Source: Candidatus Woesearchaeota archaeon (GTDB lineage Archaea > Nanobdellota > Nanobdellia > Pacearchaeales > GW2011-AR1). Taken from it: 64,000 bases of DNA. Position numbers and translations under genes: made by a program. The DNA lies in assembly GCA_964575515.1 (NCBI GenBank), contig CAZNQS010000001.1, positions 5,403 through 69,402 on the forward strand. The letters run 5' to 3'. Shown piece after piece: positions 3,513 through 56,838 of this stretch (its first letter is position 1; every line of letters starts with the position of its first letter). Below the pieces are notes generated by a model. That model did no database searches, was not told the origin of the DNA, and saw nothing but the letters and a program-made list of their open reading frames with translations.

Positions 3513-3911
3513 TCAATAACATTCTACTTCTAACCCTTTAATTCTTTCAAAATGCCTTACATCTCTCGTAATCAACTTCTCGCCATTGTGTTTTGCTATT
3601 GCACCGATCATAATATCCTCAATCTGAACTTTCTCCCCTTTTTTTGTTAACTCTGCTTCAATCTCCCCGCTTTTTATGGCGCTATCTTTATCTAAATCAA
3701 GAATAATTAAAGAAGAGATAAATTCAATTACTTTTTCCTTTTCATTTTCAATTCTTGGAGTTAAAATAGAACCACTAATCAATTCGATAATAGTTGGAGC
3801 ACTAATAGTTAAGACTTCCCTATTTCTCTCAAGAAGAGCTAATTTCTCTTTTGCCTCTTTATTAATTCCTCGCAATAAATCGATAGCGAAAGTCGTTTCT
3901 AAACATACCAT
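3513..3911 (-). CDS. vapC: PIN-domain toxin, VapC-like
   Basis: 132 aa with an N-terminal LETTFAIDLL, acidic residues spaced as in PIN domains, and a 1-nt overlap with the upstream small antitoxin-like ORF. Confidence 0.78.
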   Translation of the reverse strand: MVCLETTFAIDLLRGINKEAKEKLALLERNREVLTISAPTIIELISGSILTPRIENEKEKVIEFISSLIILDLDKDSAIKSGEIEAELTKKGEKVQIEDIMIGAIAKHNGEKLITRDVRHFERIKGLEVECY

Positions 3912-12464: not shown

Positions 12465-14888
12465 TTACAATTTAATTTCTGCCCTTATCGCAGTAGGCGC
12501 CTCTCCTCCATGCCAAGTAAACCTGGGCCTTACTCTAACAGGATACAATCTCTCTGAATTATCATCTAAGATTACGGCAGAACCCTTCAAAGAAGGCAGC
12601 TCATCCATTTGCTGCTTAATATCCTCTAATAAATAAGTCTGCATAATATCATTTAACGCTTCGACATCTGGTTTTGAGGTAACTCTATGCGCTATAACTA
12701 TATCAGATTGAGTCATAACATCCTTATGAATCTGCCCTGGTTGTTGAGTCGCTAAAACTAAGGATATGCCCGGCTGCCTACCTTCTCTCAAAAGCTGCTT
12801 GAGGGCATCTGTTGCAGGTGTTACAGCATCTCTCGGTAAAAATTCTTGTGCCTCATCAATAAATATCCAAACCAATGGCTCTGCTCTCTCACTGCTATAA
12901 GACAAATAATCCTGTCCATGACGAATTGACTCCAATTCTTCCTCTTTGCGGGCGTCCATCCTAACTTTAAACAATTTTCTGGTAATAAGAGATATCACTA
13001 GCGCCCTGATATTATAAGCCCCGATAGAGCTGTAAACAGACACGTCAAGAACGCTGGTAGTTCCTGCCTTAATCAAGTCGGAGATTTCAGTCCCCTCTTT
13101 CTCTCTTGAAAATATCCCCCAATTATCTGCGGCGCTGAAAAGTGTTGAGGCTATCTCCTTTGTATTAGAATTTGCCTTTCTGTCATGCTCAATTGCCATT
13201 TGAATATCCTCTAAAGTGAAATTAACAAGTTTATCTCTCAATTCTGTAATCATTCTTTGTATCAAGACAGCAGGAAGCGAAGTCAAAGGAAGATTAAAAA
13301 GCGTAATCCAATCCTCTGCCTCTAACTCAGATATCTTTATTGCAAATGTGTCATCAACAGGGATATTTTTTTCCTTATACTCATCCACTTTCCCAAAAGG
13401 AACAAAAATCCTAACTGGCAAAGATTTAGTCCCCAACTGCCATTCTCTCAATAAGTCCTTATCCTTTTCGTTCTCATATTTCATTGTCCAGAATATTCCC
13501 ATTGTATCAAATATAAGAGAAGCGATGTTTCGCGATACTTCAAAAGGGAGATTAGCAAGTTCTTCGGCGATTACTCCTAATGTGTAACTTTTGCCGGAAT
13601 TATGTGAGATTATTCCATTTGCTATAAAAGAATGATTTTTCGGAACCATTAAATCATATACTTCTGCAATACCTTCTACTTCTGTAATATTTTTTATTCT
13701 TTTGCATACTAAATTTTCTCCAATATACCTTGTCTTTCTTCTTTTGGTATTATTGAATTTATGATTGTTTAATTTTTCTTGTTTTGACTTTATGATGAAA
13801 CCTATTTTCTTAAAATTATCTACTGATTGATTATCTGTGATAAATAATCTATAACTTTCAAATTCTTTTCCATCCAATTTTGATATTTTTTCTCTTATAC
13901 TAGACTCTATTTTGAAGTGACCTAATAATAGTTGCAAGCCTAATACAAATTCTTTAGATTTTGAGGAATATTCTATATATCTCCCTGTTTTTTCTATATA
14001 ACCATCACAACAGAACAAGGCATTTATAAAATTAGCTTTGAATTCATTTGAGCTTTTAAAAACAATTCTTGGTATTCTTATTATAGCACTTTTATTCCCT
14101 TTGGGAATATCCAAAGAAATAAATTTATTAATTATTCTTTGATCTAAAACCTGAACAACTTCACAATTACAATCATTTCTTTGATATCTCTTTGCATATG
14201 TGTCAAATTCATTTTCTAAATCTTCTTTTGCTTGCGAGAGAACTTCATTATCTGCATTAAATATTCTTATTCTAGCTTTTGTACCATTATACCAATAACC
14301 TTTACCATCCTTATACAATCCCTTCCTAATCGAAATATTACCATCAGCTAAAATATATCCTAAAAGCCTGGCTAGCCTCATACTTTCATTACCGCCCTTT
14401 ATTTCTGGCAGTTCTATTGGTAAGACTATCTTATCTCCAATCTTTAATTCTTTTGCCTTTCTCCAGAAATTATATTTTCCATATGAACTTAATAATGGAT
14501 GTTCTTTAGTCATAATTATTTCCCTGCCATCTTCAAATTCTATTTTAAAAAGTTTTTCATTTTCTATTGGATATTGTAAAAGTTTAGCATTTTCCCAATC
14601 AAATTCTTTGGTTTCTTTGTTAAATGAAAGAATTCTATCATTATTTTCATCAAATTCTTTAATTTTTTTATACCCTTTATCTGTAAATATAAGAGTTCCT
14701 CCTTCTAGACAACCCCTTTTTCCAGCAACTAAAACAACGTGGCTTCTCGCCACATCCATGTAAATCTTATTCGACAAAGAAGTATAATTCCCCATTTTCA
14801 CATATCCCTTACCAATGTAAATCAACCCTTTATCTCCAAACCTCTCTTTGTCAGAAGCATCTCTCCCTATTATTATGTCATATGTCAT
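12465..14888 (-). CDS. HerA/FtsK-superfamily (DUF87-like) ATPase interrupted by an intein
   Basis: The Walker A is split as VAGKRG|C..HN|SGKSYTLG. Walker B is WIFIDEAQEF, followed by LATQQPG and a C-terminal RPRFTWHGGE. The mature extein is 436 aa. Confidence 0.8.
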   Translation of the reverse strand: MTYDIIIGRDASDKERFGDKGLIYIGKGYVKMGNYTSLSNKIYMDVARSHVVLVAGKRGCLEGGTLIFTDKGYKKIKEFDENNDRILSFNKETKEFDWENAKLLQYPIENEKLFKIEFEDGREIIMTKEHPLLSSYGKYNFWRKAKELKIGDKIVLPIELPEIKGGNESMRLARLLGYILADGNISIRKGLYKDGKGYWYNGTKARIRIFNADNEVLSQAKEDLENEFDTYAKRYQRNDCNCEVVQVLDQRIINKFISLDIPKGNKSAIIRIPRIVFKSSNEFKANFINALFCCDGYIEKTGRYIEYSSKSKEFVLGLQLLLGHFKIESSIREKISKLDGKEFESYRLFITDNQSVDNFKKIGFIIKSKQEKLNNHKFNNTKRRKTRYIGENLVCKRIKNITEVEGIAEVYDLMVPKNHSFIANGIISHNSGKSYTLGVIAEELANLPFEVSRNIASLIFDTMGIFWTMKYENEKDKDLLREWQLGTKSLPVRIFVPFGKVDEYKEKNIPVDDTFAIKISELEAEDWITLFNLPLTSLPAVLIQRMITELRDKLVNFTLEDIQMAIEHDRKANSNTKEIASTLFSAADNWGIFSREKEGTEISDLIKAGTTSVLDVSVYSSIGAYNIRALVISLITRKLFKVRMDARKEEELESIRHGQDYLSYSSERAEPLVWIFIDEAQEFLPRDAVTPATDALKQLLREGRQPGISLVLATQQPGQIHKDVMTQSDIVIAHRVTSKPDVEALNDIMQTYLLEDIKQQMDELPSLKGSAVILDDNSERLYPVRVRPRFTWHGGEAPTAIRAEIKL
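13599..14711 (-). mobile_element. 371-aa intein with a LAGLIDADG homing-endonuclease domain, inserted in the P-loop
   Basis: Starts at Cys (CLEGGTLIF). Block B is TKEHPLL, the LAGLIDADG motifs are LLGYILADGNI and ALFCCDGYI, and it ends ..IISHN followed by a +1 Ser. Confidence 0.85.
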
Positions 14889-16841: not shown

Positions 16842-17345
16842 CTATTCTTTAGCAATATTTTCTCCTATATTAAGTAGCTTTTGATATGTTGAGGCATCAA
16901 GAAAATATCCTTTTTCAGGCAGTCTTTTTAGCAGCTCTTTATATTTGCTTAAATTTATTATTTTTTTATCCAATAAAATTATTAATATTGATGTTGTTCT
17001 TATTGGTATTAGATTAAATATAGAACAGATATTAAAACCAATCTTTTCGTCGATTAATATAGTATCTATATCAAGTTCTTTACAAAGCGAGATACATTCT
17101 TTTTCTCCCTTGTCTAATCTTTCTATTTTTGCAATAGACTTTGGCTCTTTTACAATAATGAATTTTTCTTCTATAAATTTTTCTAGAGGCAGGACTTCAT
17201 TTTTTATTTGTTTTTTCCCTTCGGAAACTACTTCTTCGTATACGCCTCTTGAAATTATTACTTCATCGAATAAATTCTTAAGATAATGCAAGCCTCCAAT
17301 TTCAGATAAATGTATTAAAGGGGTTGAATCGGAAATAGCTTTCAT
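16842..17345 (-). CDS. PIN-like nuclease domain protein (DUF3368-like toxin candidate)
   Basis: MKAISDSTPLIHLSEIGGLHYL.. The ATG at 17345 overlaps the upstream stop as ATGA. Confidence 0.62.
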   Translation of the reverse strand: MKAISDSTPLIHLSEIGGLHYLKNLFDEVIISRGVYEEVVSEGKKQIKNEVLPLEKFIEEKFIIVKEPKSIAKIERLDKGEKECISLCKELDIDTILIDEKIGFNICSIFNLIPIRTTSILIILLDKKIINLSKYKELLKRLPEKGYFLDASTYQKLLNIGENIAKE

Positions 17346-17668
17346 TTTTTTGATAATTTTTTGATTATCTCCAAGTCTCTGTCTATATCCTCTGGTGTAA
17401 GGCCAACCCAATCAATTTTCTTTTCTTTTGTTATATCAAGCATTTCCAATATGGAAATGCCTGCTTCTTCTGCTGCCTTCCCTAAAGAAATTTTATGTGC
17501 AGTTAACTGCTCAAGAGCATTCTGTGTTCTCCATTCTTTTATTGCCTTGTCTAAGAGACGTCTTATAATCTCGCTTCTGTCTATGCGCCATTTCCTTTCT
17601 ACTTCGGCAAGCTCTTTTTCAAGTTCTTTACCTAGCCTTACTGATATTATGTCCGCCATTGTATACAT
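17342..17668 (-). CDS. RHH / UPF0175-like antitoxin candidate
   Basis: N-terminal ISVRLGKELEKEL (RHH-like), then ISLGKAAEEAGISILEMLD (UPF0175-like HTH). Confidence 0.6.
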   Translation of the reverse strand: MYTMADIISVRLGKELEKELAEVERKWRIDRSEIIRRLLDKAIKEWRTQNALEQLTAHKISLGKAAEEAGISILEMLDITKEKKIDWVGLTPEDIDRDLEIIKKLSKK

Positions 17669-22168: not shown

Positions 22169-23245
22169 CTACCCCTCAATATTATTCATCCTTATCTTGC
22201 CAAGCTCTTCTTTAACAATTAAAGCCTTGTCGTCCCCTAATATTTTCTTGTAAAAATCAATATCTGAATAAAGTGACTGCCCAAGAGAGCCTGCCTCATT
22301 TATCAGCTGCGCAACCTCTGCTTCATGCAAAGAAGTCTTGCTCAAAATTCTCCAGCCCTTGACTGCTGGAATTGGCGGCATCAATTCCTCATAGCCCAGT
22401 ATTCTCAATAAATGACTATCATCAAGAATCTCGTCATAATCCAAATCTTCAAGCAAAGTTTTCGACCTCTTAAGATTGAATTGAGTATAATCTTTTATAA
22501 CTAAATCTGTTTCTTCCCCTACATCCTTTAACAACTCTTTAAGCCTTAATTTTAACAAAGCACCCTCTTTGCCTAATTCAATAGTATATTTGTCCAGATT
22601 CTCTGCGATTTTCTGTATTAAATATCCTTTTTGTATGACTTGTATTGCCTGATTTAAACTTGGATAATTTCTCATTTCAAAAAAATTGAGTTTTCCTATA
22701 TACTTATCAAAAAGCTCCCTTTGTTTTTCAAGCAATTGTATGTTTTCGTTAGCTTTTCTAAGCAATTCGCCTGTATTCACAAGAGGATATTTTACGTTCT
22801 TGTAAAACAAATTAATCTCGTGCTTTCTTTCAGAAATAGCGATCACTAAAGTTCCAGCCTGTTTTGCCACCCTTTCTGCAGTCTTGTGTCTTATTCCCGT
22901 CTCGTTAGTTGCTATCTTATTGTCAGGCGCAAGCAAAACATTCACATAATTAATCTTTCTCATATCTTTTGATAATACTATGGCTCCGTCCATCTTGGCA
23001 AGTTCAACAAGTCTTTGTTGAGTAAATCCAACATCTATCTTAAAGCCCCCTTCTAAAATCGGAGCAAGATATTCATCTTCTACAACAATAAGAGCCCCTT
23101 TCTGCGCTTTCAACACTCCGTCAAGCGCCGCTCTTAAATTTGTTCCAGGTGCAACTAATTTTAAAATAGCTGAAAATTCCTCTTCAGAAACTTCGTGATT
23201 TTCCTCTTGAATTATCTTTTCTTGTATTTCTTTTTTTGTTTCCAT
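22169..23245 (-). CDS. disA: DisA-type diadenylate cyclase (DNA integrity scanning protein)
   Basis: LKLVAPGTNLRAAL, GALIVV, KMDGAIVL and ETGIRHKTAERVAKQAGTLVIAISERK, then a helical linker and a C-terminal HhH-like region. It is collinear with bacterial DisA. Confidence 0.88.
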   Translation of the reverse strand: METKKEIQEKIIQEENHEVSEEEFSAILKLVAPGTNLRAALDGVLKAQKGALIVVEDEYLAPILEGGFKIDVGFTQQRLVELAKMDGAIVLSKDMRKINYVNVLLAPDNKIATNETGIRHKTAERVAKQAGTLVIAISERKHEINLFYKNVKYPLVNTGELLRKANENIQLLEKQRELFDKYIGKLNFFEMRNYPSLNQAIQVIQKGYLIQKIAENLDKYTIELGKEGALLKLRLKELLKDVGEETDLVIKDYTQFNLKRSKTLLEDLDYDEILDDSHLLRILGYEELMPPIPAVKGWRILSKTSLHEAEVAQLINEAGSLGQSLYSDIDFYKKILGDDKALIVKEELGKIRMNNIEG

Positions 23246-24616: not shown

Positions 24617-25549
24617 ATGTATATTGAGAGAAGGAAAGCAAGGGGTAAGATAAGATACTATTTAGGACATTCATTCAGAGAAGGTGGAAAAGTACATAAA
24701 TTAAGGAAATTTCTTGGCTCTGATTTAGATGAGAAGACTCTTAGTGAGCGGGCAGAAAAGGCCAAAGCTTTAATCTTAGAAGAAATTCAGAAATATCAAA
24801 TTATTCGCGACCCTTTAAAGGTTGAACTTTCTGAAGAAGAGATTGTATATTTACGCAATCTTGAGAAGAAAATTCCGCTTAAAGTAGATCATCTCTCAGA
24901 AAAAGATTGGCAAAGATTTACCGAGTTATTTACCTATAGCACAAACGCGATTGAAGGAAGCGAACTTAACAGTAAAGAAGTTAAAGAAATTCTTGAAGAA
25001 GATAAATGGCCTGATAAATCTAAGGAAGACATTGCTGAAGCCTATGGAGTAAATGATGCAATTGAATTTATTAGGAAAATTAGAGAGCATATCTCTTTAG
25101 AGTTTATACTTGAATTACATAAACTCGTTTTTAAGAATTCCAAAAATTTTGCCGGACAATTTAGAAAACCTGGAGAGGAGGTCGTTGTTATGGGAGGAGG
25201 AAAGATTGTTCATCAAGGTGCACCTCAATCGAGAATTGTTAGACTTTTGAAAGAGCTTATAGAGTGGTATGAGAAAAATAAAAGTAAATATCCGGGTATT
25301 GTATTAGCGGCAGTTGTACATAATCAGTTTGAGAATATTCACCCTTTTAGAGACGGAAATGGAAGAGTGGGAAGATTATTGTTAAATAACATTCTCCTGA
25401 AACATGATTTGCCACCTGTGAATATTGATTTGAAGAATAGGCAGGAGTATTATAAGGCATTACAGTCGTATGATAAGGAATATAACCTGCGACCGATGAT
25501 TGAGCTTATTCTTAAAGAATATAAGACTCTTAAAAGAATTTTGAAGTAA
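24617..25549 (+). CDS. Fic/DOC family protein
   Basis: Canonical Fic motif HPFRDGNGRVGR. Confidence 0.85.
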   Translation: MYIERRKARGKIRYYLGHSFREGGKVHKLRKFLGSDLDEKTLSERAEKAKALILEEIQKYQIIRDPLKVELSEEEIVYLRNLEKKIPLKVDHLSEKDWQRFTELFTYSTNAIEGSELNSKEVKEILEEDKWPDKSKEDIAEAYGVNDAIEFIRKIREHISLEFILELHKLVFKNSKNFAGQFRKPGEEVVVMGGGKIVHQGAPQSRIVRLLKELIEWYEKNKSKYPGIVLAAVVHNQFENIHPFRDGNGRVGRLLLNNILLKHDLPPVNIDLKNRQEYYKALQSYDKEYNLRPMIELILKEYKTLKRILK

Positions 25550-26134: not shown

Positions 26135-27133
26135 CTAGAGAAAAATATTCCAATAAGTCTCTGTCATCTCCTCGGCCATAAAATCAATAAGTTTTTGATA
26201 ATGTTCTTTATTTGCTTTTGAGAGATATGAAGGATCAGCGGTTCTTAATGCTTGTAAATATTTATCTCGTTTCTTCTTATGCACAATTACCGGAGGATAA
26301 TTGTTATTAATAAGGACAGCATCAAAGAGTATTCTTCCTGTTCTTCCATTACCATCCATGAAAGGATGTATTTTCTCGAATTTATGATGGAAAATAGTTG
26401 CTATAACTAATGGATGGAGATATTTCTTGCTTTGCTCATACCACTTAAATAAGATGTCCATATCAGTTTTTACATAGGGTGCAGGAGTTGCTTTAAAGTT
26501 TGCTCTTATAACTCTAACATCAGATGTCCTGTAACCCATTCTATCATCAATATTTTCCATGAGACTCTTGTGAATATTAATAATTAAATCATGTGAAAGC
26601 TCCTGTTTCTTCTCAAGCAAAAAAAGAAAAACTTTTTCTGTATTCTGCAAATCATAAATTTCTCTTAGGGTTCTATTTTTTGGAGTAAGCCCTTCGTCAA
26701 GAAGTTTCCTTGCTTCATCTAATTTGATAGTATTTCCCTCAATAGAAGCAGTATTATAGGCAAATTCTATAATAAAGTTTTTGTAAATTTCCTGTTTTGT
26801 GGGTGCAGGATTCTTTCGAAACTCGTTATTATAGTGGATTTTACATGCTTCTATTTCGGGAGTCTTGTCACCTAACCATTCATCTTTTTTTAGTTTGCTT
26901 TCCTTGGCTTTTTGAAGATACCGATTTGATTCCAGAAAATTATGGATTGTTTTATATGCTTTTCTTATTTTTTCAGAATGTTGAGGTAACTTTTCTAGAC
27001 TTTGTTTTATCTCCTCAAGAGAGCTTCCTAAGTATGCGATATCTTTTGCGATAACTTTTCCGTTCTTTCTTTCTGACGCTCTAAGGTAATAATATATTTT
27101 ATTTCCTACAGGCTTTTTGTAAATGTATACCAT
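26135..27133 (-). CDS. Fic/DOC family protein
   Basis: Fic motif HPFMDGNGRTGR. The N-terminal region is paralogous to the 24617 ORF. Confidence 0.85.
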   Translation of the reverse strand: MVYIYKKPVGNKIYYYLRASERKNGKVIAKDIAYLGSSLEEIKQSLEKLPQHSEKIRKAYKTIHNFLESNRYLQKAKESKLKKDEWLGDKTPEIEACKIHYNNEFRKNPAPTKQEIYKNFIIEFAYNTASIEGNTIKLDEARKLLDEGLTPKNRTLREIYDLQNTEKVFLFLLEKKQELSHDLIINIHKSLMENIDDRMGYRTSDVRVIRANFKATPAPYVKTDMDILFKWYEQSKKYLHPLVIATIFHHKFEKIHPFMDGNGRTGRILFDAVLINNNYPPVIVHKKKRDKYLQALRTADPSYLSKANKEHYQKLIDFMAEEMTETYWNIFL

Positions 27134-28459: not shown

Positions 28460-28532
28460 TAGCCCCACCAGGATTCGAACCTGGGTCTACGGGACCAGAA
28501 CCCGCAATGCTTGACCACTACACCATAGGGCT
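28460..28532 (-). tRNA. tRNA-Gln(CUG)
   Basis: Hand fold: acceptor AGCCCTA/TGGGGCT, D arm GTGT-AGTGGTCAA-GCAT, anticodon arm GCGGG-TTCTGGT-CCCGT, and T arm CCAGG-TTCGAAT-CCTGG. Confidence 0.85.
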
Positions 28533-29423
28533 GTCTATAATCTTTAATCTTTCTATGTGCTTTAAATTAGAAAAATTTATCTCTTTTAAATACTTGCTTA
28601 TATCACTTTTTCTGGAGATAAAAAATTGCTTATTCACGATTATTTTAGAAGGGAAGAATCCAAGTTTTATGAAAGCATTTCTAGTATCTATTAATAGCTT
28701 CATATTATAATTAGTAAAACTAAGCCTTATTAATTTCGGATCTTTATTAGACATACGAAAAACTGATCCATCAGTGTCTATTAATCCCCTTACGCAGGCT
28801 TTTAAGAAAGATTCATTTTCCCATACCCAATAAGGTATTGTAATTTGATTTTTTATTTTGTCTCCGGCATTTAATCCCATATCTATAAAAAATTCCACTA
28901 ATTCTTTACTATAAATATCGAGAAATCTTTCATTTGGTCTCAATATTTCTTTAGCTTTCAGATTAAAGATATTTTCACATAAATTCTTTAAATAATTTAT
29001 ATGGTAATCTTTATCTTTTTCCAAATCGCCCGCTATTCTTATGTGATAAACTCCTATCTTCTTCCCCTTTTTATAATAATTTATATTTCCATCCCCTAAA
29101 ATCGCCCCTATAAATTCAGCTAGTTTTTCATTTAGGGCAGGTTTAATTAATTTTATTTTAGATCCATTGGAAATTTTTCCCCCTTTAGATTTTCCCCAAT
29201 TATCTTCTAATATTTCTTCTATATAATTATCGAAATTAACTTTTGCAATTAAACATAATTCTCTGTATTTAATTTCTGGCAAGAGCCTCATTTCATTTCT
29301 TAATTCGAAATATAGATATTTTTCATTTAATTTTAATTTTTTAGCTAATTCTTTCCAAGTTAAATTAAATTTAGCCAATAGAATCAATTCTTTTTGCTTA
29401 CCCGCTTTTAATTTTATTCTCAT
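28518..29423 (-). CDS. double-motif LAGLIDADG homing endonuclease-like protein
   Basis: FIGAILGDGNI and VRGLIDTDGSV. The last 15 nt overlap the 5' end of tRNA-Gln. Confidence 0.85.
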   Translation of the reverse strand: MRIKLKAGKQKELILLAKFNLTWKELAKKLKLNEKYLYFELRNEMRLLPEIKYRELCLIAKVNFDNYIEEILEDNWGKSKGGKISNGSKIKLIKPALNEKLAEFIGAILGDGNINYYKKGKKIGVYHIRIAGDLEKDKDYHINYLKNLCENIFNLKAKEILRPNERFLDIYSKELVEFFIDMGLNAGDKIKNQITIPYWVWENESFLKACVRGLIDTDGSVFRMSNKDPKLIRLSFTNYNMKLLIDTRNAFIKLGFFPSKIIVNKQFFISRKSDISKYLKEINFSNLKHIERLKIIDSPMV

Positions 29424-35917: not shown

Positions 35918-36310
35918 TTATATTGCCTCTTTAGCCTGCCTAGTAGAAATGCCAAGAGATATAAGAAATGAAGACGCGTCTCTTTTATCCTTATAATTTA
36001 AGGTGACAAATTTCGCCTTGGCCTTCCTGCATATCTTTATGTTTTGGACTATTTTTCCAAGTGTTGTCGCCTTCGCCTTTTTTTCCAGTTTTCTTAACTC
36101 ATTTAAATCAATTCCAATCGCTACTTTATTTCTTGCAGCAATTCTGGCCAGAACATGATTCAAGCCAGAGTCCAAGAGCAAAATGTCAAAATTTCCATAT
36201 TCCAGTATTTTTCTGTTGAATTCGCCGCCCTGCGCTTTTACTATTATTGGCATTTCCATGCAATTTCTGATTTCTTTCTTTGCTTTTTCTATGTTTGAGG
36301 TGTGTATCAT
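35918..36310 (-). CDS. short RNase P subunit Rpp30-like protein (tentative)
   Basis: NHVLARIAARNKVAIGIDLNEL.. and AKFVTLNYKDKRDASSFLISLG resemble the C-terminal half of Rpp30, but it is only 130 aa. Confidence 0.4.
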   Translation of the reverse strand: MIHTSNIEKAKKEIRNCMEMPIIVKAQGGEFNRKILEYGNFDILLLDSGLNHVLARIAARNKVAIGIDLNELRKLEKKAKATTLGKIVQNIKICRKAKAKFVTLNYKDKRDASSFLISLGISTRQAKEAI

Positions 36311-37624: not shown

Positions 37625-38224
37625 TCACTTGAAAATCTCCCCATTTTCCTGACTCCACCACAATAAATCAAGCTCATCCGCGGGAATAGAAACACTCTTG
37701 GCGAAATTAAGAAAAATATTCTCTATCTCAAGATAATTTTTTCTATTTTTGACCTTGCTGTCGCTTATTAAATTCAAAGCAAATAAATTTCTCAAAATGT
37801 GCCTGTCAAGGATTGCAATCTTATTGTCAGATTTTCCTATATTTCGCAGAAAATGAGAAGCCTCTTTCAGCCCGTATCCATTAACATTCTCTGCTATAAA
37901 ATTCCTCAATTCCTTCCCATTCATGTCATTCAAAAATAATTTAATATTGCTCCATTCGCTCTTCGCATTTAAAATCCTCTTTGTCTTTATTACATGAAAT
38001 CTGGTTTTAGTTTTTAAAATATCAAAAACTTTTTCCTTGTCAACTCTCTTTAATTTTGAAATTTCTTCTACTGCCCCCCAGCATCTTTGGGCGTTGCTTT
38101 GCGGCGTTAACAAGCAAAACATAAATTCCTTGAACTGCTCGTCATCAGACAATTTCTTAAAACTAATCAAACGAGATTTTATCTTATCTTTATAAATTTT
38201 ATATTGCTCCAAAAGATTATGCAT
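37625..38224 (-). CDS. ogg: 8-oxoguanine DNA glycosylase/AP lyase, archaeal Ogg2 type
   Basis: CLLTPQSNA.. and NGYGLKEASHFLRNIG..AILDRHI (HhH-GPD with the catalytic Lys/Asp context). Confidence 0.8.
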   Translation of the reverse strand: MHNLLEQYKIYKDKIKSRLISFKKLSDDEQFKEFMFCLLTPQSNAQRCWGAVEEISKLKRVDKEKVFDILKTKTRFHVIKTKRILNAKSEWSNIKLFLNDMNGKELRNFIAENVNGYGLKEASHFLRNIGKSDNKIAILDRHILRNLFALNLISDSKVKNRKNYLEIENIFLNFAKSVSIPADELDLLWWSQENGEIFK

Positions 38225-42145: not shown

Positions 42146-42718
42146 TCATGCAAAAAACTCCAGCGCCATTTTGGCTCTTTTTTTAATTTCCAATGCGTCA
42201 CTCATTTTCATGTCAGCAATCTTGCTCTGCCCTGTATATTCCAGTAATTCCCATTCGCTTATTCCCAGTAATCTGGCAGCCTGCCCAAGTGAAATGCCAT
42301 GCTCATAAATTCTGGCTCCTTTATTTATAGAAGCCTTCCTTATAACTTCTTGAACATACTGCCTGAAATCTTTCGATACAGATTCCAAAATCTTGCGAGC
42401 TTCCCACATATTTGAAGCATACGATTCATTGTCATTCTTTTTCAGCGCAGAAATAGTCCTATCAATCACAAAATTAAACTTCCTAACAAAGTCATCCCAA
42501 TTTCCAATTCTCTCATAATCCCTGCGCTCAATTAACTTGCTAAGCGCATATATCAAAACAGCAGTTGTAATGCTCCCTGCGTCCTGATACGAGCATGAAG
42601 AATGAATCGTCCTGTCAGAAAGCTCTCTTAATTTAGCAGCATCCTTGTTAATTAGTGCCTTTTTCGCTTCATCCAAAACATCCATGGCATTACGACATTC
42701 CTCTTTTTCCAGCAACAT
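42146..42718 (-). CDS. hypothetical protein with a C-terminal HTH
   Basis: ISLGQAARLLGISEWELLEY. Confidence 0.4.
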   Translation of the reverse strand: MLLEKEECRNAMDVLDEAKKALINKDAAKLRELSDRTIHSSCSYQDAGSITTAVLIYALSKLIERRDYERIGNWDDFVRKFNFVIDRTISALKKNDNESYASNMWEARKILESVSKDFRQYVQEVIRKASINKGARIYEHGISLGQAARLLGISEWELLEYTGQSKIADMKMSDALEIKKRAKMALEFFA

Positions 42719-42768
42719 TATTTTAAAAATAAGGAAGAATATATATAGTTATTTATGATAATAAAAAA

Positions 42769-43140
42769 ATGGAAGTTCTATTAGATGCAAATTTCATAAT
42801 CTCCTGCATATTAAAAAAAATTGATTTTCAATCGCAACTTGAAGAAAAAGGGTTCAAAATAGTCGTTCCGCGAGAAGTTATACAGGAATTAAAGGACTTA
42901 AAATTTAGAAAAGGAATGTCGCATGAGGAAAGAACTGCAATTAACGTGGCCCTTGAAATTTTTTCTTCAAAAAAGATAAAGAAAATTGGCTTTGGCGAGA
43001 ATAAAGTTGACGATATGCTGATAAAAAAGGGAAAAGAAGGCGTTTATATCGCAACGTTAGACAGGGAGATAAAACGCCAGATTCCAAATAAAGTCATTAT
43101 TATAGATGCAAAAAAAGAAATAGGCTTTGAAAGAAGCTGA
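42769..43140 (+). CDS. Fcf1/Utp24-like PIN-domain endonuclease
   Basis: LLDANFII.. and YIATLDREIKRQI resemble archaeal Fcf1 homologues. Confidence 0.55.
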   Translation: MEVLLDANFIISCILKKIDFQSQLEEKGFKIVVPREVIQELKDLKFRKGMSHEERTAINVALEIFSSKKIKKIGFGENKVDDMLIKKGKEGVYIATLDREIKRQIPNKVIIIDAKKEIGFERS

Positions 43141-50302: not shown

Positions 50303-50734
50303 TCAATGAATTATTTTCTCTGCAAGAAAAAAAACAATCAACGGGGTAATTACTATCTGCAAAACCGGTGTTAGGCCAACGTTAACTAAGGGAATGACAG
50401 GCATTGATGGATTATAGGTAAATCTATTGGTGTATTGCGCATAGAATTCGAATACAACTGCAATGAAGATGCCGAAGATAATTGACAATAAAACATTTTT
50501 TATATTATTGATTCTCCAATTGAATGACTTATTTATTCCTGATACCCCTAGAAAGATAATCAGGACCATGATAATATCCCCTATAGATGCCTGCAAGATT
50601 CTTGGAACATATTCACGTACTACCATATCTGTTATTGTCTCGTATAGCAAGGAATGTGAAACTTCCCAAAATAAGTTAATTAGAAAAGCAAAGATAGATA
50701 TGTAGACTAGTTTTTCAACCCATATCTTTCCCAT
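50303..50734 (-). CDS. integral membrane protein
   Basis: 4 TM segments. Confidence 0.45.
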   Translation of the reverse strand: MGKIWVEKLVYISIFAFLINLFWEVSHSLLYETITDMVVREYVPRILQASIGDIIMVLIIFLGVSGINKSFNWRINNIKNVLLSIIFGIFIAVVFEFYAQYTNRFTYNPSMPVIPLVNVGLTPVLQIVITPLIVFFLAEKIIH

Positions 50735-50804
50735 TATTCCACATTGCTCATTATATTTATAAATCTAAGCGAAGATTTAAAAACCGATTTTCTTTCAGTT
50801 TCTC

Positions 50805-51110
50805 ATGGGAAGAGTCAGAATAAAATTAGGAAGCATTGACATAAGCTCGTTAAATTCAGCAATAGCCATGATTAAAGAAATAACTCAAAGAGCAGGAGTT
50901 GTAATGCGCGGCCCAATTCCGTTGCCAACAAAAATACTAAAAGTCACAACAAGAAAAGGACCTGACGGAAGGGGAACTGCTACTTTTGACAGATTTGAGA
51001 TGCGCGTCCATAGAAGAATAATAGACATCCCGGCAGAAGATAGAATCTTACATCCCATAATGAAATTGCAGATTCCAAGAAGCGTGCAAATTAAAGTAGA
51101 AATTAAATAA
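50805..51110 (+). CDS. rps10: 30S ribosomal protein S10 (uS10)
   Basis: RIKLGS.. and GPIPLPTK..TTRKGPDGRGTATFDRFEMRVHRRIIDI. Confidence 0.92.
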   Translation: MGRVRIKLGSIDISSLNSAIAMIKEITQRAGVVMRGPIPLPTKILKVTTRKGPDGRGTATFDRFEMRVHRRIIDIPAEDRILHPIMKLQIPRSVQIKVEIK

Positions 51111-51984
51111 GATTTTTAGTTTGTTTGCTGATTTTATAAATCGCTTTGAGACTCGGCATTAGTATTCTGCTCCATGTTTCAAATTTCTTGTCCAGTGATT
51201 TATCCTCTAATATATTATTAATTTTCACCATTTTTCCTGAAATTAGTGCAGCTTCATTTGGTCTTACATTTCCATTAGTATGAATAGCGTAAACTAGTCC
51301 AAAGTGAACCCTATCAACTGGTTGTTCATATGCCATAAGCGTTCCTACTAATTGTGGTTTTGTATAACGGCCTTCAATTTTTACTTCTTCTCTTAAAACT
51401 TCTCTTTCAATACAACCTTTCAAGAAATCTGGACCATCTGTTTTTACGATATGTCCGCCTGCCCCTATTGAGTGTTTACCGAATAGCCTCTCATCCCCAT
51501 AATCTCTAATTTCTTTAGCTCTTACATAAGTGAATATTGTTTCATCTTCTCCGAAAAGAATTGCGTATGGTATTGGTTGTAGCACGAGTTCATCAGTTTC
51601 GCAATCATATCTAGAATGGAAAAACCCTGATTCAATATCTTTTTCAAGTCTTTTGATATCATCTTCTTGAATAAATTCAAATCCTTCTTTTGTTCTTCTA
51701 TGTTTTAGCAAAATATCAGATTCTTGAGTTAGGACTAATCTGTCTAGTTTTTTGTAGTTTCTTGTAGCGTATTTATAATCAAATTCTGTGAAATTGTTTG
51801 AGGGGTAAGGCCCAACTTGATTTTGATAACTTGATCCAATTTCTTTACTATAAATCTTATCAGGGTTTTCTGCCGTTCTGAATATTCTTAATTTACTAAT
51901 TGGCATTCCGTGTGATAGAATTATTCTTGCTGCTTCTTCAGATCTTACTTCGAAAACTAGATCTCCTATGAACCCATTATCCAC
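51103..51984 (-). CDS. C-terminal end of the DCD-type deaminase domain fused to a Nudix (COG4112-like) domain; same frame as the upstream ORF
   Basis: The track start is a GTG. N-terminal DNGFIGDLVFEVRS..HGMPISKL..IGSSYQNQ matches the C-terminal region of long dCTP-deaminase-like proteins. It is followed by the Nudix-like GGHI..CIEREVLREEV. Confidence 0.55.
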   Translation of the reverse strand: MDNGFIGDLVFEVRSEEAARIILSHGMPISKLRIFRTAENPDKIYSKEIGSSYQNQVGPYPSNNFTEFDYKYATRNYKKLDRLVLTQESDILLKHRRTKEGFEFIQEDDIKRLEKDIESGFFHSRYDCETDELVLQPIPYAILFGEDETIFTYVRAKEIRDYGDERLFGKHSIGAGGHIVKTDGPDFLKGCIEREVLREEVKIEGRYTKPQLVGTLMAYEQPVDRVHFGLVYAIHTNGNVRPNEAALISGKMVKINNILEDKSLDKKFETWSRILMPSLKAIYKISKQTKNLI

Positions 51985-52014
51985 AAATCCGGCATCATGT
52001 AGCGACCCTGTGAT

Positions 52015-52983
52015 TCAAATATGCGAATGTTTTTCTAATTCGGAGCTTAGATGGTTTGGCATTTTCAACACCTCTTGTGATGAGAAGAGACAGCATTCTC
52101 CTGTACTAAGTATGGTTTTATTGTCCTTCGCTTTAATTGGCTCGAAATAAGCTTCTGACTCATAAGTATATTTTTCTTGTAAGTCTATTGGATTTGGATT
52201 ATCTCGCGCTCTTAGGCCAACGATTCCCTCGGTGTGTTCTCCAAGTACATCCAGATGTACTTGCAAGCCATCTCTAATAATATGTTTTTGTGGTATCAAT
52301 TCTCCAGATGGTGATTTATGATAGAAAATTGGTTTCCTACTGGTCTCATCCATAATTTCTGAGTCTGTTAATTGAGAATTTTTTCCCTTAAAAAATCTTA
52401 GTTGATTTAATGTAGTATGCGGATACAAAACTAGATTAAATTTCCTTGGTTGTACTAAAAGCCAAAGATTCAGATTTTCGTTTGGTTTGTAATAGCCATC
52501 AGCCTCATTAAAACATGGATTGTAGTCAACAAGTAGACGAGTTATAACAAATATTCTTCCCCTACTGCTTTTTGGAGAGGAGATTAGTTGTTCATCGTTT
52601 TCTAAGCTTATTCTGTCTTCTAGGGGAATTAAGTAACTAAAACCTCTCTTTAGCTCATATCCTCCCTCTATGCTTGCTTTTTGTCTTTGTCTTTTGGGGA
52701 GAAGAAGCAAGGTTTTTTTTACTGATTCTTCTAATTCTGGGCGCAAAACTCCTCCCATGTCAGCATCTAACACAAAAAGATGATCTCCAATAGTTGGTTC
52801 GTATGAAGAGGGCTGTATCCTACTCTCTAGGCTTTCGTCCAAAAACCAATTTTTTTTCACATTTTCGGTATCTTCAGTTGAAAGTAAAAAATTAGTAGTA
52901 TTGGGGATTATTTTTCCCTGGGTTATTTTTTCTCTAATTTGCTGAGAAGCTAAACAATACCCTAAGTTTCCTAAATCAGTCAT
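52015..52983 (-). CDS. dCTP deaminase-like protein (long DCD family), truncated by an in-frame TGA at 52015-52017
   Basis: IQPSSYEPTIGD, SSPKSSRGRIFVITRLLVD, LNQLRFFKG and GLRARDNPNPIDL are collinear with long-form DCD proteins. This rests on recollection of the family, not a search. Confidence 0.55.
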   Translation of the reverse strand: MTDLGNLGYCLASQQIREKITQGKIIPNTTNFLLSTEDTENVKKNWFLDESLESRIQPSSYEPTIGDHLFVLDADMGGVLRPELEESVKKTLLLLPKRQRQKASIEGGYELKRGFSYLIPLEDRISLENDEQLISSPKSSRGRIFVITRLLVDYNPCFNEADGYYKPNENLNLWLLVQPRKFNLVLYPHTTLNQLRFFKGKNSQLTDSEIMDETSRKPIFYHKSPSGELIPQKHIIRDGLQVHLDVLGEHTEGIVGLRARDNPNPIDLQEKYTYESEAYFEPIKAKDNKTILSTGECCLFSSQEVLKMPNHLSSELEKHSHI

Positions 52984-53075
52984 ATCCTTGATGCTGTTGT
53001 TTTGTTTATATAGATTATTGTAATTAAAAAATACTTTTCACATATTTTTAAAAAGTCTTATTTTTTATATTTAAA

Positions 53076-53714
53076 ATGTCAAAAGAAGCGCTCGTAGTCA
53101 ACAGAAAAACATTATTCGAAGAAAAAGAATTTCAAGGGTTCTTACCCTTAGAAAAAAGAGATTTTATTTCAATAATTTTAAAAAAACATTTTTATCATTT
53201 AAGAGGAGACGAATTAGAAAACAATCATTCCCTACAACAAATTATTCCTTATGTCTGGATTATAAATCCAAAAACAAAAAATGTCTTTTTATACAAAAGA
53301 GCGCTTACAAAAAATAAAGGCTCGGAACACAAAGAAAAAAGATATTTAAACAAATATTCAGGAGGAGTTGGAGGCCATATTGACAAAGATACAGAAGAAG
53401 GTGAAAAAGACCCTATCATGAAAGCGATGATGCGTGAATTAAAAGAAGAAGTTATCATAAATAACTACCCGATCCCAAAATTGTTAGGTTATATAAATGA
53501 CGACTCTGATAGTTTAGGGAAAGTTCATTTTGGAATCGTCGCAATTGTAGAAACAACAAATGAAGTAAAAGCAAACTCTTCAGAGGGCCTGGCTTCAGCA
53601 AAGTTCTATTCAATTAACGAAATAGAAAACATCCTCTCAAATAAAGAGGATGAAGTGGAAAATTGGACGAGAATCTCCTGGCCGTTTGTGAAAAGTTATC
53701 TAGAAAAATTATAG
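53076..53714 (+). CDS. Nudix-family phosphoesterase (COG4112-like)
   Basis: GGVGGHIDKD..AMMRELKEEV Nudix-like box. It is a paralogue of the C-terminal 200 aa of the 51103 ORF. Confidence 0.55.
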   Translation: MSKEALVVNRKTLFEEKEFQGFLPLEKRDFISIILKKHFYHLRGDELENNHSLQQIIPYVWIINPKTKNVFLYKRALTKNKGSEHKEKRYLNKYSGGVGGHIDKDTEEGEKDPIMKAMMRELKEEVIINNYPIPKLLGYINDDSDSLGKVHFGIVAIVETTNEVKANSSEGLASAKFYSINEIENILSNKEDEVENWTRISWPFVKSYLEKL

Positions 53715-54605
53715 ATTTATATTCAACTTTCTCCACTTTTCTAAAAATTCCTCTCTCTCCCTTTTATTTGTGAATATTTCTTCTACAACAGTGTTTATTT
53801 CTTTTCTTTCATTAACTATCCCATCTATTGCTCTTCTATCTAATCCAGAAATAAACATTCCATTTAATCTATAATCAACAAAGGCTTCATATGCAATTGG
53901 CACAACCCTGTTTGTTATTTCCCCAATAGCATTCGCATAAGTCCTAATTTCCAGTTGCGCATGAGAATCCATCCTTAATGACAAAAAATGAAATAAATTA
54001 TGCAAATCAATCTTCCAATAAGCTTCAGTATATGTTGATAGAGGCAAATCCTTTCTAGCTTGTTCTCTCGCTACACCTAACCTTAGTCTTTCTTCATATA
54101 TTGCTCTTACATTCTTTTGCAGTGCTTCTTCCATATCAGAAAGATGGACGCCATCTTCTTCATTAATAAAACCAGAACTACCCTGCCTATTCGCCCCAGA
54201 TTGCAATCTCCATTCTGTTGGTTTAGTTCTTTGTGCAGAATCAATAGCTTCAGAATAACGAGTAGAATATTCATTAACATTTGCCGTCCTATGCCTTATC
54301 CACTGCCTCCAGCAATCCATTGGAACCCTGACATGAAATTTTAATTCTACCATCTCAAAAGGAGTAGTATGTCTATGCCTCATCAAATATCTTATTAAGC
54401 CTCTATCCTCATGAACTTTTTTTGTACCTTTTCCATAGCTGACTCTTGCAGCTTGCACTATTGCTTCATCCCCCCCAAAATAGTCAACTAATCTTACATA
54501 ACCGTCATCTAAACATTTAAATGGCTTTCCCAAAATTTCTTCAGCAGCAGGAACAACTAGTCTCCTTGTCTGATACAATTCCTCTTTTTTTTCTTCCATA
54601 TTCAA
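53709..54605 (-). CDS. thyX: FAD-dependent thymidylate synthase ThyX
   Basis: RHRHTTPFE and the ThyX motif IRHRTANVNEYSTRY. Confidence 0.92.
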   Translation of the reverse strand: MNMEEKKEELYQTRRLVVPAAEEILGKPFKCLDDGYVRLVDYFGGDEAIVQAARVSYGKGTKKVHEDRGLIRYLMRHRHTTPFEMVELKFHVRVPMDCWRQWIRHRTANVNEYSTRYSEAIDSAQRTKPTEWRLQSGANRQGSSGFINEEDGVHLSDMEEALQKNVRAIYEERLRLGVAREQARKDLPLSTYTEAYWKIDLHNLFHFLSLRMDSHAQLEIRTYANAIGEITNRVVPIAYEAFVDYRLNGMFISGLDRRAIDGIVNERKEINTVVEEIFTNKREREEFLEKWRKLNINL

Positions 54606-54696: not shown

Positions 54697-55353
54697 ATGC
54701 AAAATAAAAGAGGAATGTTCATAGTCTTTGAAGGAATAGACGGCAGCGGTAAAAATACTCAGTTAATAAAACTTATAGAACATATAGAAAAATTAGACAA
54801 ATATCAGGATATTATAAAGACGCATGAGCCATGGAAGAATAAAGAAATAAAGAAAAAAATCCAAGAGGACAAGGAAGCTTATTCTGATGGAATCCAAATG
54901 GCAAAATTATATGTAAAAGACAGAATCGCCCACTCCGAAGAAATAAAAAATCAATTAGATAAAATCTATTTTGTCTTATGCGACAGATACAAAATGTCAA
55001 CTTGCGCTTATCAATGGACACAAGGCGTCGATTTATACAGATTGTTAAAAATGCATGAAAATGAAAAAATCATCCAGCCTGATTTAACGCTTTTCATTGA
55101 TATTTCCGCTGACATTGCATTGAAAAGAGTCTCAAAAAGAAATGATTCAAAAGAGAAATTTGAAGATTGGAAATTTCAGAAAGATCTTGTCAGCCATTAT
55201 CATAGTTTAATAGAGAGGCAAGATTGTAAAAATCTGTTTGGAAAAGTAATTAGTGTAAACGGGAGGGGTTCTATAGATGAAGTAGCGGAAAAAGTTAGGA
55301 ATGTGTTCTATCCTTTCTATAAAACCTGGAAAGATAAAAATCAAAACTCTTAA
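54697..55353 (+). CDS. tmk: thymidylate kinase
   Basis: P-loop FIVFEGIDGSGKNTQ, a DRY-like CDRY, and the lid region. Confidence 0.88.
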   Translation: MQNKRGMFIVFEGIDGSGKNTQLIKLIEHIEKLDKYQDIIKTHEPWKNKEIKKKIQEDKEAYSDGIQMAKLYVKDRIAHSEEIKNQLDKIYFVLCDRYKMSTCAYQWTQGVDLYRLLKMHENEKIIQPDLTLFIDISADIALKRVSKRNDSKEKFEDWKFQKDLVSHYHSLIERQDCKNLFGKVISVNGRGSIDEVAEKVRNVFYPFYKTWKDKNQNS

Positions 55354-55444: not shown

Positions 55445-56125
55445 ATGGATCTATCTAAAAGAAATAGAAAGGTCGCCATATCTCGTTGGAAAAAACATCT
55501 AATATATAATCAGAGTAGAATATATTCAGGTAAAGACGTGGAAGTTATGAAGGCCGCGCTATGTGGTTTTCTTGCAGGAGACGGAAGCGTACAAGTAAGA
55601 AAAGGAAAGTCTTTTTCACATTATCAACTAGATTTTTTCCCGGATGATATCCGTATGCTAAAAAAGTATCTAAGTTTAATGAAGAGAGTGTATAAAACAA
55701 TACCTTCTATTACTAGAAGAGACAATGTCTTTGCAGCCAGGTTATTTCAGAAATTTATAGTATTGGATTTGCTTAAAATATCTAAGTTTGGTGTATATAA
55801 TTGGAATATCCCCAATTGGATTATGAAAAATGATCTAAACAAAAAAGCCTGGCTTCGAGCATTTTTTTCTGCAGAAGGTTATGTAAATCAAAAATATATT
55901 AAAACGCAAAGCGTTAATCTTATAGGGATAAGTAAAGTGTCTCATTTATTAGATAGTATGGATATATCTCATCGTGTTTATTACTATAAACCAAAAAACA
56001 CAAATCACTCAAAAGTAGCTTTATTATTTATAAGCCCATTTAAGTCTAGAATAAAATTCTATAAAGAAATTGGTTTTTGGCATTTAAAAAAAGAAAGAAA
56101 ACTAAGAGAAACGTTAGGTTTATAA
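55445..56125 (+). CDS. double-motif LAGLIDADG homing endonuclease-like protein
   Basis: LCGFLAGDGSV and LRAFFSAEGYV. It has its own TATA-like aaaatataaata about 25 nt upstream. Confidence 0.8.
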   Translation: MDLSKRNRKVAISRWKKHLIYNQSRIYSGKDVEVMKAALCGFLAGDGSVQVRKGKSFSHYQLDFFPDDIRMLKKYLSLMKRVYKTIPSITRRDNVFAARLFQKFIVLDLLKISKFGVYNWNIPNWIMKNDLNKKAWLRAFFSAEGYVNQKYIKTQSVNLIGISKVSHLLDSMDISHRVYYYKPKNTNHSKVALLFISPFKSRIKFYKEIGFWHLKKERKLRETLGL

Positions 56126-56149: not shown

Positions 56150-56231
56150 GCTGATGTTGAGCAGTGGTAGCTCGCTTGCTTGGAGAGCAAGTTTCCTTAC
56201 AGATATGCAGGTTCGATTCCTGCCATCAGCG
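56150..56231 (+). tRNA. class II tRNA, probably tRNA-Ser(GGA)
   Basis: Acceptor GCTGATG/CATCAGC with G73, 3-bp D stem GAG/CTC, anticodon arm CTTGC-TTGGAGA-GCAAG, a 15-nt variable region (poorly paired), and T arm GCAGG-TTCGATT-CCTGC. Confidence 0.62.
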
Positions 56232-56302: not shown

Positions 56303-56635
56303 TTAGTTTTTCAGAAAAGAACAAACCTCATTTACAATTTCATCAAATTTTTCTTGCTTTAATGATCCAACTTTATATTTTATCAACGATTTATCAATAG
56401 AAGCAATTTTATCTATTCTAATGTAACTCTCCATTTTAAGACTTCCTTGTCTAAAATCTTCTTTCTTTATCTGAATCTCAACTAGTTTTTCATATGAGGC
56501 GCCGGTTATTTGTAAAACGATAACATCTTCACCTTTAGGAACTTTCAAGATCAAAACAGGCCTTCTTTTTGACTTTTTTAAATTAGAATAAGGAAACTCA
56601 ATTACTACAATATCTCTCCTTACAAATCCTTCCAC
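56303..56635 (-). CDS. mazF: MazF/PemK-family endoribonuclease toxin
   Basis: RRDIVVIEFPYSN..KRRPVLIL.. Confidence 0.85.
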   Translation of the reverse strand: MEGFVRRDIVVIEFPYSNLKKSKRRPVLILKVPKGEDVIVLQITGASYEKLVEIQIKKEDFRQGSLKMESYIRIDKIASIDKSLIKYKVGSLKQEKFDEIVNEVCSFLKN

Positions 56636-56838
56636 GCTTCATCCTCTTCTTTATTAAGCCAGTTTTTAGCAAGAGATTTTTCAGATAAAATTGTCCATTC
56701 GGGAATAGATTTTTTAATAATTATTTCATCATCTTTTTTAATCACAATTAGTTTGTCTCCTTCTTTTATGTCTTTTCTCATGTCAAGAGGAATAACAATC
56801 TGGCCCCTCGAACTCATTTTAGTTGTATCAATTTGCAT
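56620..56838 (-). CDS. mazE: AbrB/MazE/SpoVT-family antitoxin
   Basis: SSRGQIVIPLDMRKDIKEGDKLIV. It overlaps mazF by 16 nt. Confidence 0.8.
   Translation of the reverse strand: MQIDTTKMSSRGQIVIPLDMRKDIKEGDKLIVIKKDDEIIIKKSIPEWTILSEKSLAKNWLNKEEDEAWKDL

Follow-up and report, generated by a model that had tools for sequence, protein, structure and literature searches.

A DCD–Nudix fusion gene of a DPANN archaeon interrupted by a single in-frame UGA codon

When a UGA codon lies in the middle of a conserved enzyme domain, is it a lesion, an artefact or a codon that is read as something else? This question is raised by a gene on the reverse strand of the 64,000-nucleotide stretch analyzed here (the window; contig CAZNQS010000001.1, positions 5,403 to 69,402, of the Candidatus Woesearchaeota archaeon assembly GCA_964575515.1), which if read through its interruption would give a fusion between a long-form dCTP deaminase (DCD) and a Nudix-like domain. 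The gene occupies 51103..52983 (minus strand), with 626 codons and a terminal TAA at 51105..51103. Its 5′ open reading frame (ORF; 52015..52983, minus strand), which is called as a separate gene in public assemblies, encodes 322 amino acids ending in ELEKHSHI and is closed by TGA at codon 323 (52017..52015), whereupon the frame continues with ITGSLHDAGF to a GTG at 51984..51982, 10 codons past the stop. From this GTG a 3′ ORF of 293 amino acids can be drawn (51103..51984, minus strand), which comprises the second half of DCD_C along with the Nudix-like domain and the translation of which is hypothetical; another gene caller places its start at an ATG at codon 360, giving 267 amino acids. The translations bore out the original prediction that one in-frame TGA separates the ORF at 52983-52015 from the same-frame ORF starting at GTG 51984, and since this TGA is the sole internal stop of the 626-codon frame, the gene does not encode a single uninterrupted polypeptide. 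We consider it probable, although by no means certain, that the TGA is a real and recent nonsense allele, GGA to TGA at Gly323, likely causing loss of function: a pseudogene in the making, or a knockout at strain level that dominates a groundwater population.

The residues on both sides of the stop belong to one deaminase. When the read-through translation was compared with protein families, it scored 92.6 bits with the Pfam DCD model (cut-off 27) and exceeded the gathering thresholds of both long-form DCD models, namely DCD_N (PF06559; residues 52-200, 52384..52830, minus strand; 61.4 bits, cut-off 21.4) and DCD_C (PF22569; residues 232-389, 51817..52290, minus strand; 92.0 bits, cut-off 22), the latter being split by the TGA. 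It had been claimed that the TGA falls inside the conserved deaminase domain, which its position within DCD_C confirmed, and the matches of Pfam DCD (residues 245-369), DCD_C and PRK07559 (residues 52-389) all cover residue 323, so that the sequence past the stop is also deaminase sequence. A family profile compared with the solved long-form DCD 2r9q likewise aligned across residue 323. The score with the NCBIfam equivalog NF005734 (PRK07559) was 148.2 bits, below its cut-off of 283, which points to a divergent subfamily rather than to an equivalog of the alphaproteobacterial enzyme. The Ser/Arg loop, the AGFxDxGF motif and the catalytic Glu were all conserved in the read-through translation. 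In the homologue alignment S136, P137, K138, S139, G142 and R143 of the N-terminal domain, lying in its SPKSSxGR motif (S136-R143), were invariant, as were A331, G332, D335, F338 and E345 of the C-terminal domain, which are encoded but all lie past the TGA. The last of these is the predicted catalytic glutamate (FEVR), with its codon at 51949..51951 (minus strand), 22 codons beyond the stop.

The rest of the frame, from about residue 405 to 620 (51124..51771, minus strand), corresponds to a Nudix-like domain of the TM1382/COG4112 type, as judged from a profile and fold match to 3e57 (TM1382, a ‘putative Nudix hydrolase’; profile E-value 7.1e-23 over positions 399-603) and from a neighbouring Nudix paralogue. 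Its variant Nudix box, GGHI...IEREVLREEV (residues 509-534, 51382..51459, minus strand), has invariant G509, G510, H511, R527, E528, E532 and E533. Compared with the canonical box GX5EX7REUXEEXGU, the sequence reads RE-x3-EE (REVLREEV), which is one residue longer than REUxEE, and the upstream G-x5-E spacing is non-canonical; the fusion protein had no match to PF00293 (NUDIX) at E ≤ 0.01, whereas the neighbouring paralogue scored 31 bits (cut-off 21.1). As a structural model we used an AlphaFold (AF2) prediction of the closest intact homologue, P0001, rather than of the window protein itself (mean predicted local distance difference test, pLDDT, 88.7; predicted template modelling score 0.80). 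Its best fold matches were 2r9q, with template modelling (TM) scores of 0.88-0.91, and 3e57, with TM scores of 0.85-0.87, followed by canonical DCD and bifunctional DCD-DUT enzymes and by Nudix structures including MutT2 and RppH.

A search of a 5.8-billion-protein collection gave 281 homologues, and the alignment work was done on the best 120 of these. These 120 were 552-765 amino acids long, with 47-64% identity over 87-100% of the query, and all of them carried DCD_N, DCD_C and DCD. The read-through protein aligned with intact homologues of 585-632 amino acids over 96-100% of its length, and the end-to-end alignments with intact proteins of about 600 residues reached E-values down to 1e-268, a run of homology through the stop that is far beyond chance. 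The uninterrupted DCD–Nudix fusion is the standard form in DPANN archaea, and Woesearchaeota, Pacearchaeota and Nanoarchaeota have no fewer than 120 intact homologues with a length of about 600 residues. The proposed fusion of a DCD with a COG4112-like Nudix domain was thus upheld by profiles and folds as an architecture, but not as a peculiarity of this locus, since it is found lineage-wide and both functions are at times already annotated, some JGI entries being titled ‘predicted NUDIX family phosphoesterase/deoxycytidine triphosphate deaminase’. What gene callers list as two ORFs is one gene in two halves, and it should carry a pseudogene or disrupted flag in the annotation. Two of the homologues, P0004 and P0005 (764-765 amino acids), add a nucleoside-diphosphate kinase domain (PF00334) to the DCD domains, suggesting three-enzyme fusions in dNTP metabolism, and at two Woesearchaeota loci (L030:1637-2617 and L036:1790-2761) an unfused long-DCD paralogue with 27-28% identity lies directly upstream of the fusion.

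What did the TGA replace? Among the 120 homologues the aligned column holds Gly in 111, Ser in six, and Ala, Arg and Cys in one each. Where the window has CAT ATT TGA ATC, the closest relative has CAT ATT GGA ATT, so that a single G-to-T transversion accounts for the stop; GGA is also the commonest Gly codon of the genome (295 of 667). In an alignment to the DCD-DUT of Mycobacterium tuberculosis (2qxx), codon 323 fell on the Gly in the loop motif KSSLGRLG and Glu345 on the Glu of ITLELSN, while A331 was equivalent to A115 (the A115V variant is entry 4a6a). The spacing of 14 from A331 to E345 is the same as that from A115 to E129 in the M. tuberculosis enzyme. In the P0001 model the equivalent Gly lies in a long loop of lower confidence (residues 307-328, block pLDDT 59). 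An 8-oxoguanine DNA glycosylase gene (Ogg-HhH, 151 bits) is located at 37625-38224 (minus strand) in the same window; this class of enzyme guards against G-to-T transversions, and its co-occurrence with such a lesion is probably a coincidence.

The course of events that we propose starts from a DPANN bifunctional enzyme in which a long-form dCTP deaminase, built of two tandem dUTPase-like domains, is joined to a TM1382/COG4112-type Nudix pyrophosphohydrolase domain, and in the gene of which one transversion turned the conserved Gly323 codon into TGA. With TGA being an ordinary stop here, translation would end past residue 322. The 322-residue product retains all of DCD_N, with the canonical SPKSSxGR, as well as the first half of DCD_C, whereas AGFxDxGF, Glu345 and the entire Nudix domain are missing from it, wherefore the deaminase should be knocked out. 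Full-length protein would be formed only in traces through basal UGA leakage, perhaps together with a small amount of a Nudix-containing fragment made by weak internal initiation. In this account the stop, its place in the domain, its one-step origin, the standard code and the lack of recoding signals are shown, whereas the activity of the enzyme, its loss and the recency of the lesion are inferred. Such a loss should be tolerable, judging from Escherichia coli, in which dcd mutants are viable because dUMP is also provided by a route using ribonucleotide reductase (RNR) and dUTPase.

We asked how UGA is used in the rest of the window, which has a G+C content of 33.9%. It carries archaeal housekeeping genes, including those for archaeal/eukaryotic-type uS10 (TIGR01046), aIF2-gamma, aIF5B, S6e, RFC subunits, thermosome, PheRS, SerRS and ThyX, and the homologues of the fusion gene derive from metagenome-assembled genomes of Woesearchaeota, Pacearchaeota and Nanoarchaeota, which identifies the organism as a DPANN archaeon. 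The stops of 43 confident window genes were TAA in 24, TGA in 11 and TAG in eight, with codon 323 of the DCD–Nudix gene as the one internal TGA in 13,731 codons. The genetic code of this archaeon is the standard one and TGA is an ordinary stop. TGA had been taken as a true stop at 17342 and 36654, and both ORFs were found to terminate with it; the suspicion that global UGA recoding was unlikely could be sharpened to an exclusion. With regards to initiation, all of the 43 reference genes start with ATG, and a Shine–Dalgarno (SD)-like 4-5-mer at -16..-5 was present in only eight of the 43 confident genes, with AT-rich upstream regions, which suggests that initiation in this archaeon is mostly leaderless or SD-independent.

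The absence of any other decay in the gene suggests that the lesion is evolutionarily very recent. Using 153 columns that were at least 90% conserved among homologues, we found that the window gene deviates at five, one of them being the stop, while the homologues have a median of five deviations (interquartile range 3-8); none of the three regions, N-terminal, C-terminal DCD and Nudix, stood out in this respect. The same observation can be held against a nonsense allele, however, as this lack of relaxed constraint fits a very recent lesion and equally a gene still in use. Several other points weigh on that side as well. Position 323 tolerates Ser, Ala, Arg and Cys, so a product of near-cognate read-through could be active; genes for another route to dUMP (dut, dCMP deaminase or RNR) were looked for within the 64-kb window and not found; and the base at 52017 rests on assembly consensus rather than on reads, with the three assemblies that contain it probably sharing one sampling project. 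The best hit in the protein collection, which gave no nearer intact allele, was 64% identical, and scans with a single protein for close relatives gave none in genome contigs and only a relative at 48% identity in metagenome contigs, so that no relative was near enough to separate a very recent mutation from continued selection.

The three assemblies are a contig of 103,307 bp at NCBI, one of 81,298 bp at ENA (ERZ27284378:k139_468270, to which the window is identical) and one of 5,117 bp in Logan, the last matching the window with 100% identity along its 5,117 bases and coming from run SRR8863434 of the Ohio groundwater project PRJNA512237 (PMC11549363). All three give the identical truncated product, from at least two assemblers, and the Logan contig is continuous across the site, which argues against an error of sequencing or of the consensus, or the calling of a minor allele, in a population whose real gene would be the intact GGA form. 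One base is all that separates the TGA from the expected codon, the three assemblies probably derive from reads of the same project, and G-to-T changes are the typical signature of oxidative (8-oxoguanine) library damage; such damage, on the other hand, sits at low allele fractions and rarely wins a consensus, and a stop is a priori far more often the mark of a real pseudogene than of a substitution error in the consensus. An artefact therefore seems unlikely to us, and while the fresh nonsense mutation listed among the options of the original prediction became the favoured reading, through the GGA of the closest relative and its one-step change, the assembly error listed beside it is made unlikely by the agreement of the three assemblies. 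Leaky or context-dependent read-through of a real UGA by a near-cognate tRNA (Trp-CCA, Cys or Arg), with the enzyme functional at reduced dosage or made as two isoforms, is also rather unlikely, although it would agree with the lack of gene decay on either side of the stop, with the break falling in the lower-confidence loop of the P0001 model, with the acceptance of Ser, Ala, Arg and Cys at codon 323 and with the tRNA-Trp(CCA) gene in the window. In bacteria and eukaryotes, moreover, no stop codon is leakier than UGA. Against it stands that no relative has a stop at codon 323, that ten other genes in the window depend on TGA for termination, and that the RNA past the stop is unremarkable: the 100 nucleotides downstream had a minimum free energy of -17.3 kcal/mol compared with a shuffle mean of -18.8 (z = +0.5), which ruled out a read-through-stimulating structure, and no SECIS or other relevant Rfam element was matched in 50700-53300 at E ≤ 1. 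Read-through in archaea has been demonstrated only for selenocysteine (Sec) and pyrrolysine (Pyl) (PMC8211752). The programmed read-through with two isoforms that had been proposed thus found no support, and we regard it as highly improbable that codon 323 is a maintained site of UGA read-through, inserting Gly, Trp, Cys or Arg and thereby throttling the enzyme dose or yielding a functional DCD_N isoform. If true, it would be the first stop-codon recoding other than for Sec and Pyl shown in Archaea. The fucA1 gene of Saccharolobus solfataricus, with its -1 frameshift, and the Sec and Pyl genes are likewise archaeal enzyme genes broken within a conserved domain, with halves matching intact homologues; those genes come with defined signals, be it a slippery heptamer, the context of a SECIS or PYLIS, or tRNAs dedicated to the task, whereas none of these was found at the DCD–Nudix gene and its interruption is unshared.

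Should UGA instead be a sense codon here, either for Sec or through a Trp or Gly reassignment resembling codes 4 and 25, the alignment of the TGA with Gly would be in its favour, Gly being the residue inserted by genetic code 25. We give this next to no credence. The 11 genes ended by TGA and its single internal occurrence speak against it, and stop-to-stop scans placed TGA only at gene ends, which took a code 4 or 25 reassignment out of consideration; no archaeon is known to use code 25. The tRNA genes in the window are solely those for Gln-CTG, Trp-CCA, Ser-GGA and Ser-CGA, with neither a tRNA-Sec nor a UCA-anticodon suppressor among them. Sec could be dismissed on the lack of SECIS and, within the window, of tRNA-Sec, together with the aligned residue being Gly, while Sec normally stands in for Cys. 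Very unlikely, finally, is a split enzyme, in which the 322-residue N-terminal fragment and a C-terminal fragment started at GTG 51984 or at the ATG of codon 360 would form an active complex. Gene callers did call two ORFs, the break lies in a surface-type loop of the P0001 model, and archaea are known to couple translation through termination–reinitiation (PMC6728339). Reinitiation is, however, almost abolished already at about 20 nucleotides in Haloferax volcanii and E. coli (PMC10666635), and here the first in-frame canonical start, the GTG, comes 30 nucleotides past the stop. That GTG has no SD-like motif upstream, in a window where the reference genes use ATG only. Residues 323-333, with the invariant A331 and G332 and the near-invariant G323, G326 and F333, would be missing from both fragments, and no relative is split at codon 323. 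The suggestion of a genuinely split enzyme reinitiating at GTG was thus not sustained.

We also considered whether relatives share the interruption. A stop at codon 323 occurred in none of the 120 proteins and in none of about 80 genomic loci; all 120 of these proteins have Gly or another sense residue there, so that the proposed check of orthologues for a sense codon gave no support for a maintained stop. Lesions elsewhere in the gene did occur. The second-closest relative, L005 (on a contig of Logan run SRR22387893), carries a TAG in frame at residue 554, within the Nudix domain (L005:7657-7659, MAYE*PVDRVHFG), two loci (L034 and L065) have frameshifts and one (L061) is heavily disrupted, whereas stops indicated by tblastn in L006, L012, L058 and L076 proved to be natural gene ends and were discarded as evidence of a shared-site interruption. 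Since these lesions all differ and no stop is shared, disruption appears to be sporadic rather than programmed, and the lesions fit occasional loss or assembly error. As a nonsense allele the lesion in the window is ordinary and matters little, adding one to the genes disrupted by a stop codon in metagenome-assembled genomes of archaea.

What, then, might the intact enzyme do? From its homology we infer that the DCD part would convert dCTP to dUTP with the help of Glu345 and of a Ser/Arg loop contributed by the N-terminal domain, whereupon the fused Nudix domain would hydrolyze dUTP to dUMP and PPi. A conversion from dCTP through dUTP to dUMP would agree with the homology to bifunctional DCD-DUT enzymes, with the activity of Bacillus subtilis YmaB and with the triple fusions carrying a nucleoside-diphosphate kinase domain, and the conversion could reasonably be channelled, as had been suggested. 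The ymaB gene lies in the nrd operon, and a dNTP pyrophosphohydrolase activity of its product has been reported in preliminary form (PMC5960316), which together link it to dNTP metabolism. YmaB is a COG4112 protein, and the DPANN Nudix-like domain may be homologous to it. The domain resembles TM1382 (3e57) in both profile and fold; TM1382 and COG4112 proteins stand alone, with about 200 residues, whereas the DPANN domain is part of a fusion with DCD, its Nudix box is longer by one residue (REVxxEEV) and it lies below Pfam NUDIX detection.

Known deaminases resemble the fusion to different extents. The long-form DCD 2r9q of Agrobacterium tumefaciens has the same two-domain dUTPase-like architecture (PF06559 and PF22569; profile E-value 4.5e-45 over residues 38-388), and its IGSxYQxQ C-terminal tail is present in the DPANN protein, but the identity is only about 23-29%, the DPANN protein adds a C-terminal Nudix-like domain of about 220 residues, and the window copy is broken by TGA. 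The DCD-DUT enzymes of Methanocaldococcus jannaschii (1ogh) and M. tuberculosis (2qxx) are similar to the DCD_C half, with a KSSxG loop, AGFxDPGF and the catalytic Glu, and the net reaction proposed here, dCTP to dUMP, would be the same as theirs. They are, however, single-domain homotrimers of about 190-200 residues that carry out both steps in one active site, whereas the pyrophosphatase step of the DPANN protein would come from the fused Nudix domain, and in the fusion a canonical Ser/Arg loop motif is confined to the N-terminal domain, the C-terminal domain having HSHIGITG instead. Our literature searches found no biochemical paper on 2r9q, and those on TM1382, COG4112 and the fusion gave no account of the biochemistry of the DPANN fusion or of a long-form DCD, the one relevant result being the comment on YmaB.

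The dUMP so formed would feed two adjacent genes, namely that for ThyX, a flavin-dependent thymidylate synthase consuming dUMP (53709..54605, minus strand; TIGR02170, 189.8 bits, cut-off 87.9), and that for thymidylate kinase, Tmk (54697..55353, plus strand; PF02223, 107.7 bits). Between the fusion and thyX lies, divergent from the former, the standalone Nudix gene (53076..53714, plus strand; PF00293, 31 bits), a paralogue of the C-terminal domain of the fusion (33% identity, E-value 3e-19), and its 3′ end overlaps the convergent 3′ end of thyX by 6 nt. The divergent pairing of fusion and standalone Nudix gene was also seen in L005 and L028. In the vicinity of 54 fused loci, ThyX was found at none, Tmk at one and uS10 at two, so a family-wide ThyX/Tmk/uS10 neighbourhood was not supported; the dTMP-synthesis cluster is therefore lineage-specific and lends local support only. 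A role as an anti-phage defence dCTP deaminase was rejected, as no PADLOC family matched at E ≤ 0.01 and the surroundings are of a housekeeping nature (uS10, ThyX and Tmk).

Other features of the window were also recorded. A HerA/DUF87-type ATPase gene (12465-14888, minus strand) is interrupted by an intein (Intein_splicing 81 bits) that includes a LAGLIDADG endonuclease domain (LAGLIDADG_3 66 bits), and two free-standing LAGLIDADG_3 ORFs lie next to tRNA genes, one (55445-56125, plus strand) adjoining tRNA-Ser (56150-56231) and the other (28518-29423, minus strand) overlapping the 3′ end of tRNA-Gln (28460-28532). A DisA-like diadenylate cyclase with DAC and DisA-linker domains is encoded at 22169-23245 (minus strand), here in a DPANN archaeon, and two Fic/DOC-domain genes (24617-25549, plus strand, and 26135-27133, minus strand) are less than 2 kb apart. 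Several toxin–antitoxin-like modules were noted: at 16842-17668 (minus strand), where a UPF0175 antitoxin gene (17342-17668) overlaps a downstream ORF (16842-17411); at 42146-43140, with a UPF0175-like gene (42146-42718) and a PIN_9 gene (42769-43140); and at about 56303-56838 (minus strand), a MazE/PemK pair called in L001. A solitary PIN gene lies at 3513-3911 (minus strand). The RNase P p30 homologue (35918-36310, minus strand), with 130 amino acids, covers only positions 92-211 of the 214 in the Pfam model, its 30.7 bits falling short of the gathering score (35), and may be either a reduced DPANN form or truncated.

The independent lesions in relatives suggest that the DCD–Nudix gene may be dispensable in some DPANN lineages, which fits a reliance on host nucleotides. 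It is the uncharacterized fusion family, more than the nonsense allele, that is the worthwhile experimental target, and characterization of an intact orthologue would show how symbionts with reduced genomes make dUMP for ThyX.

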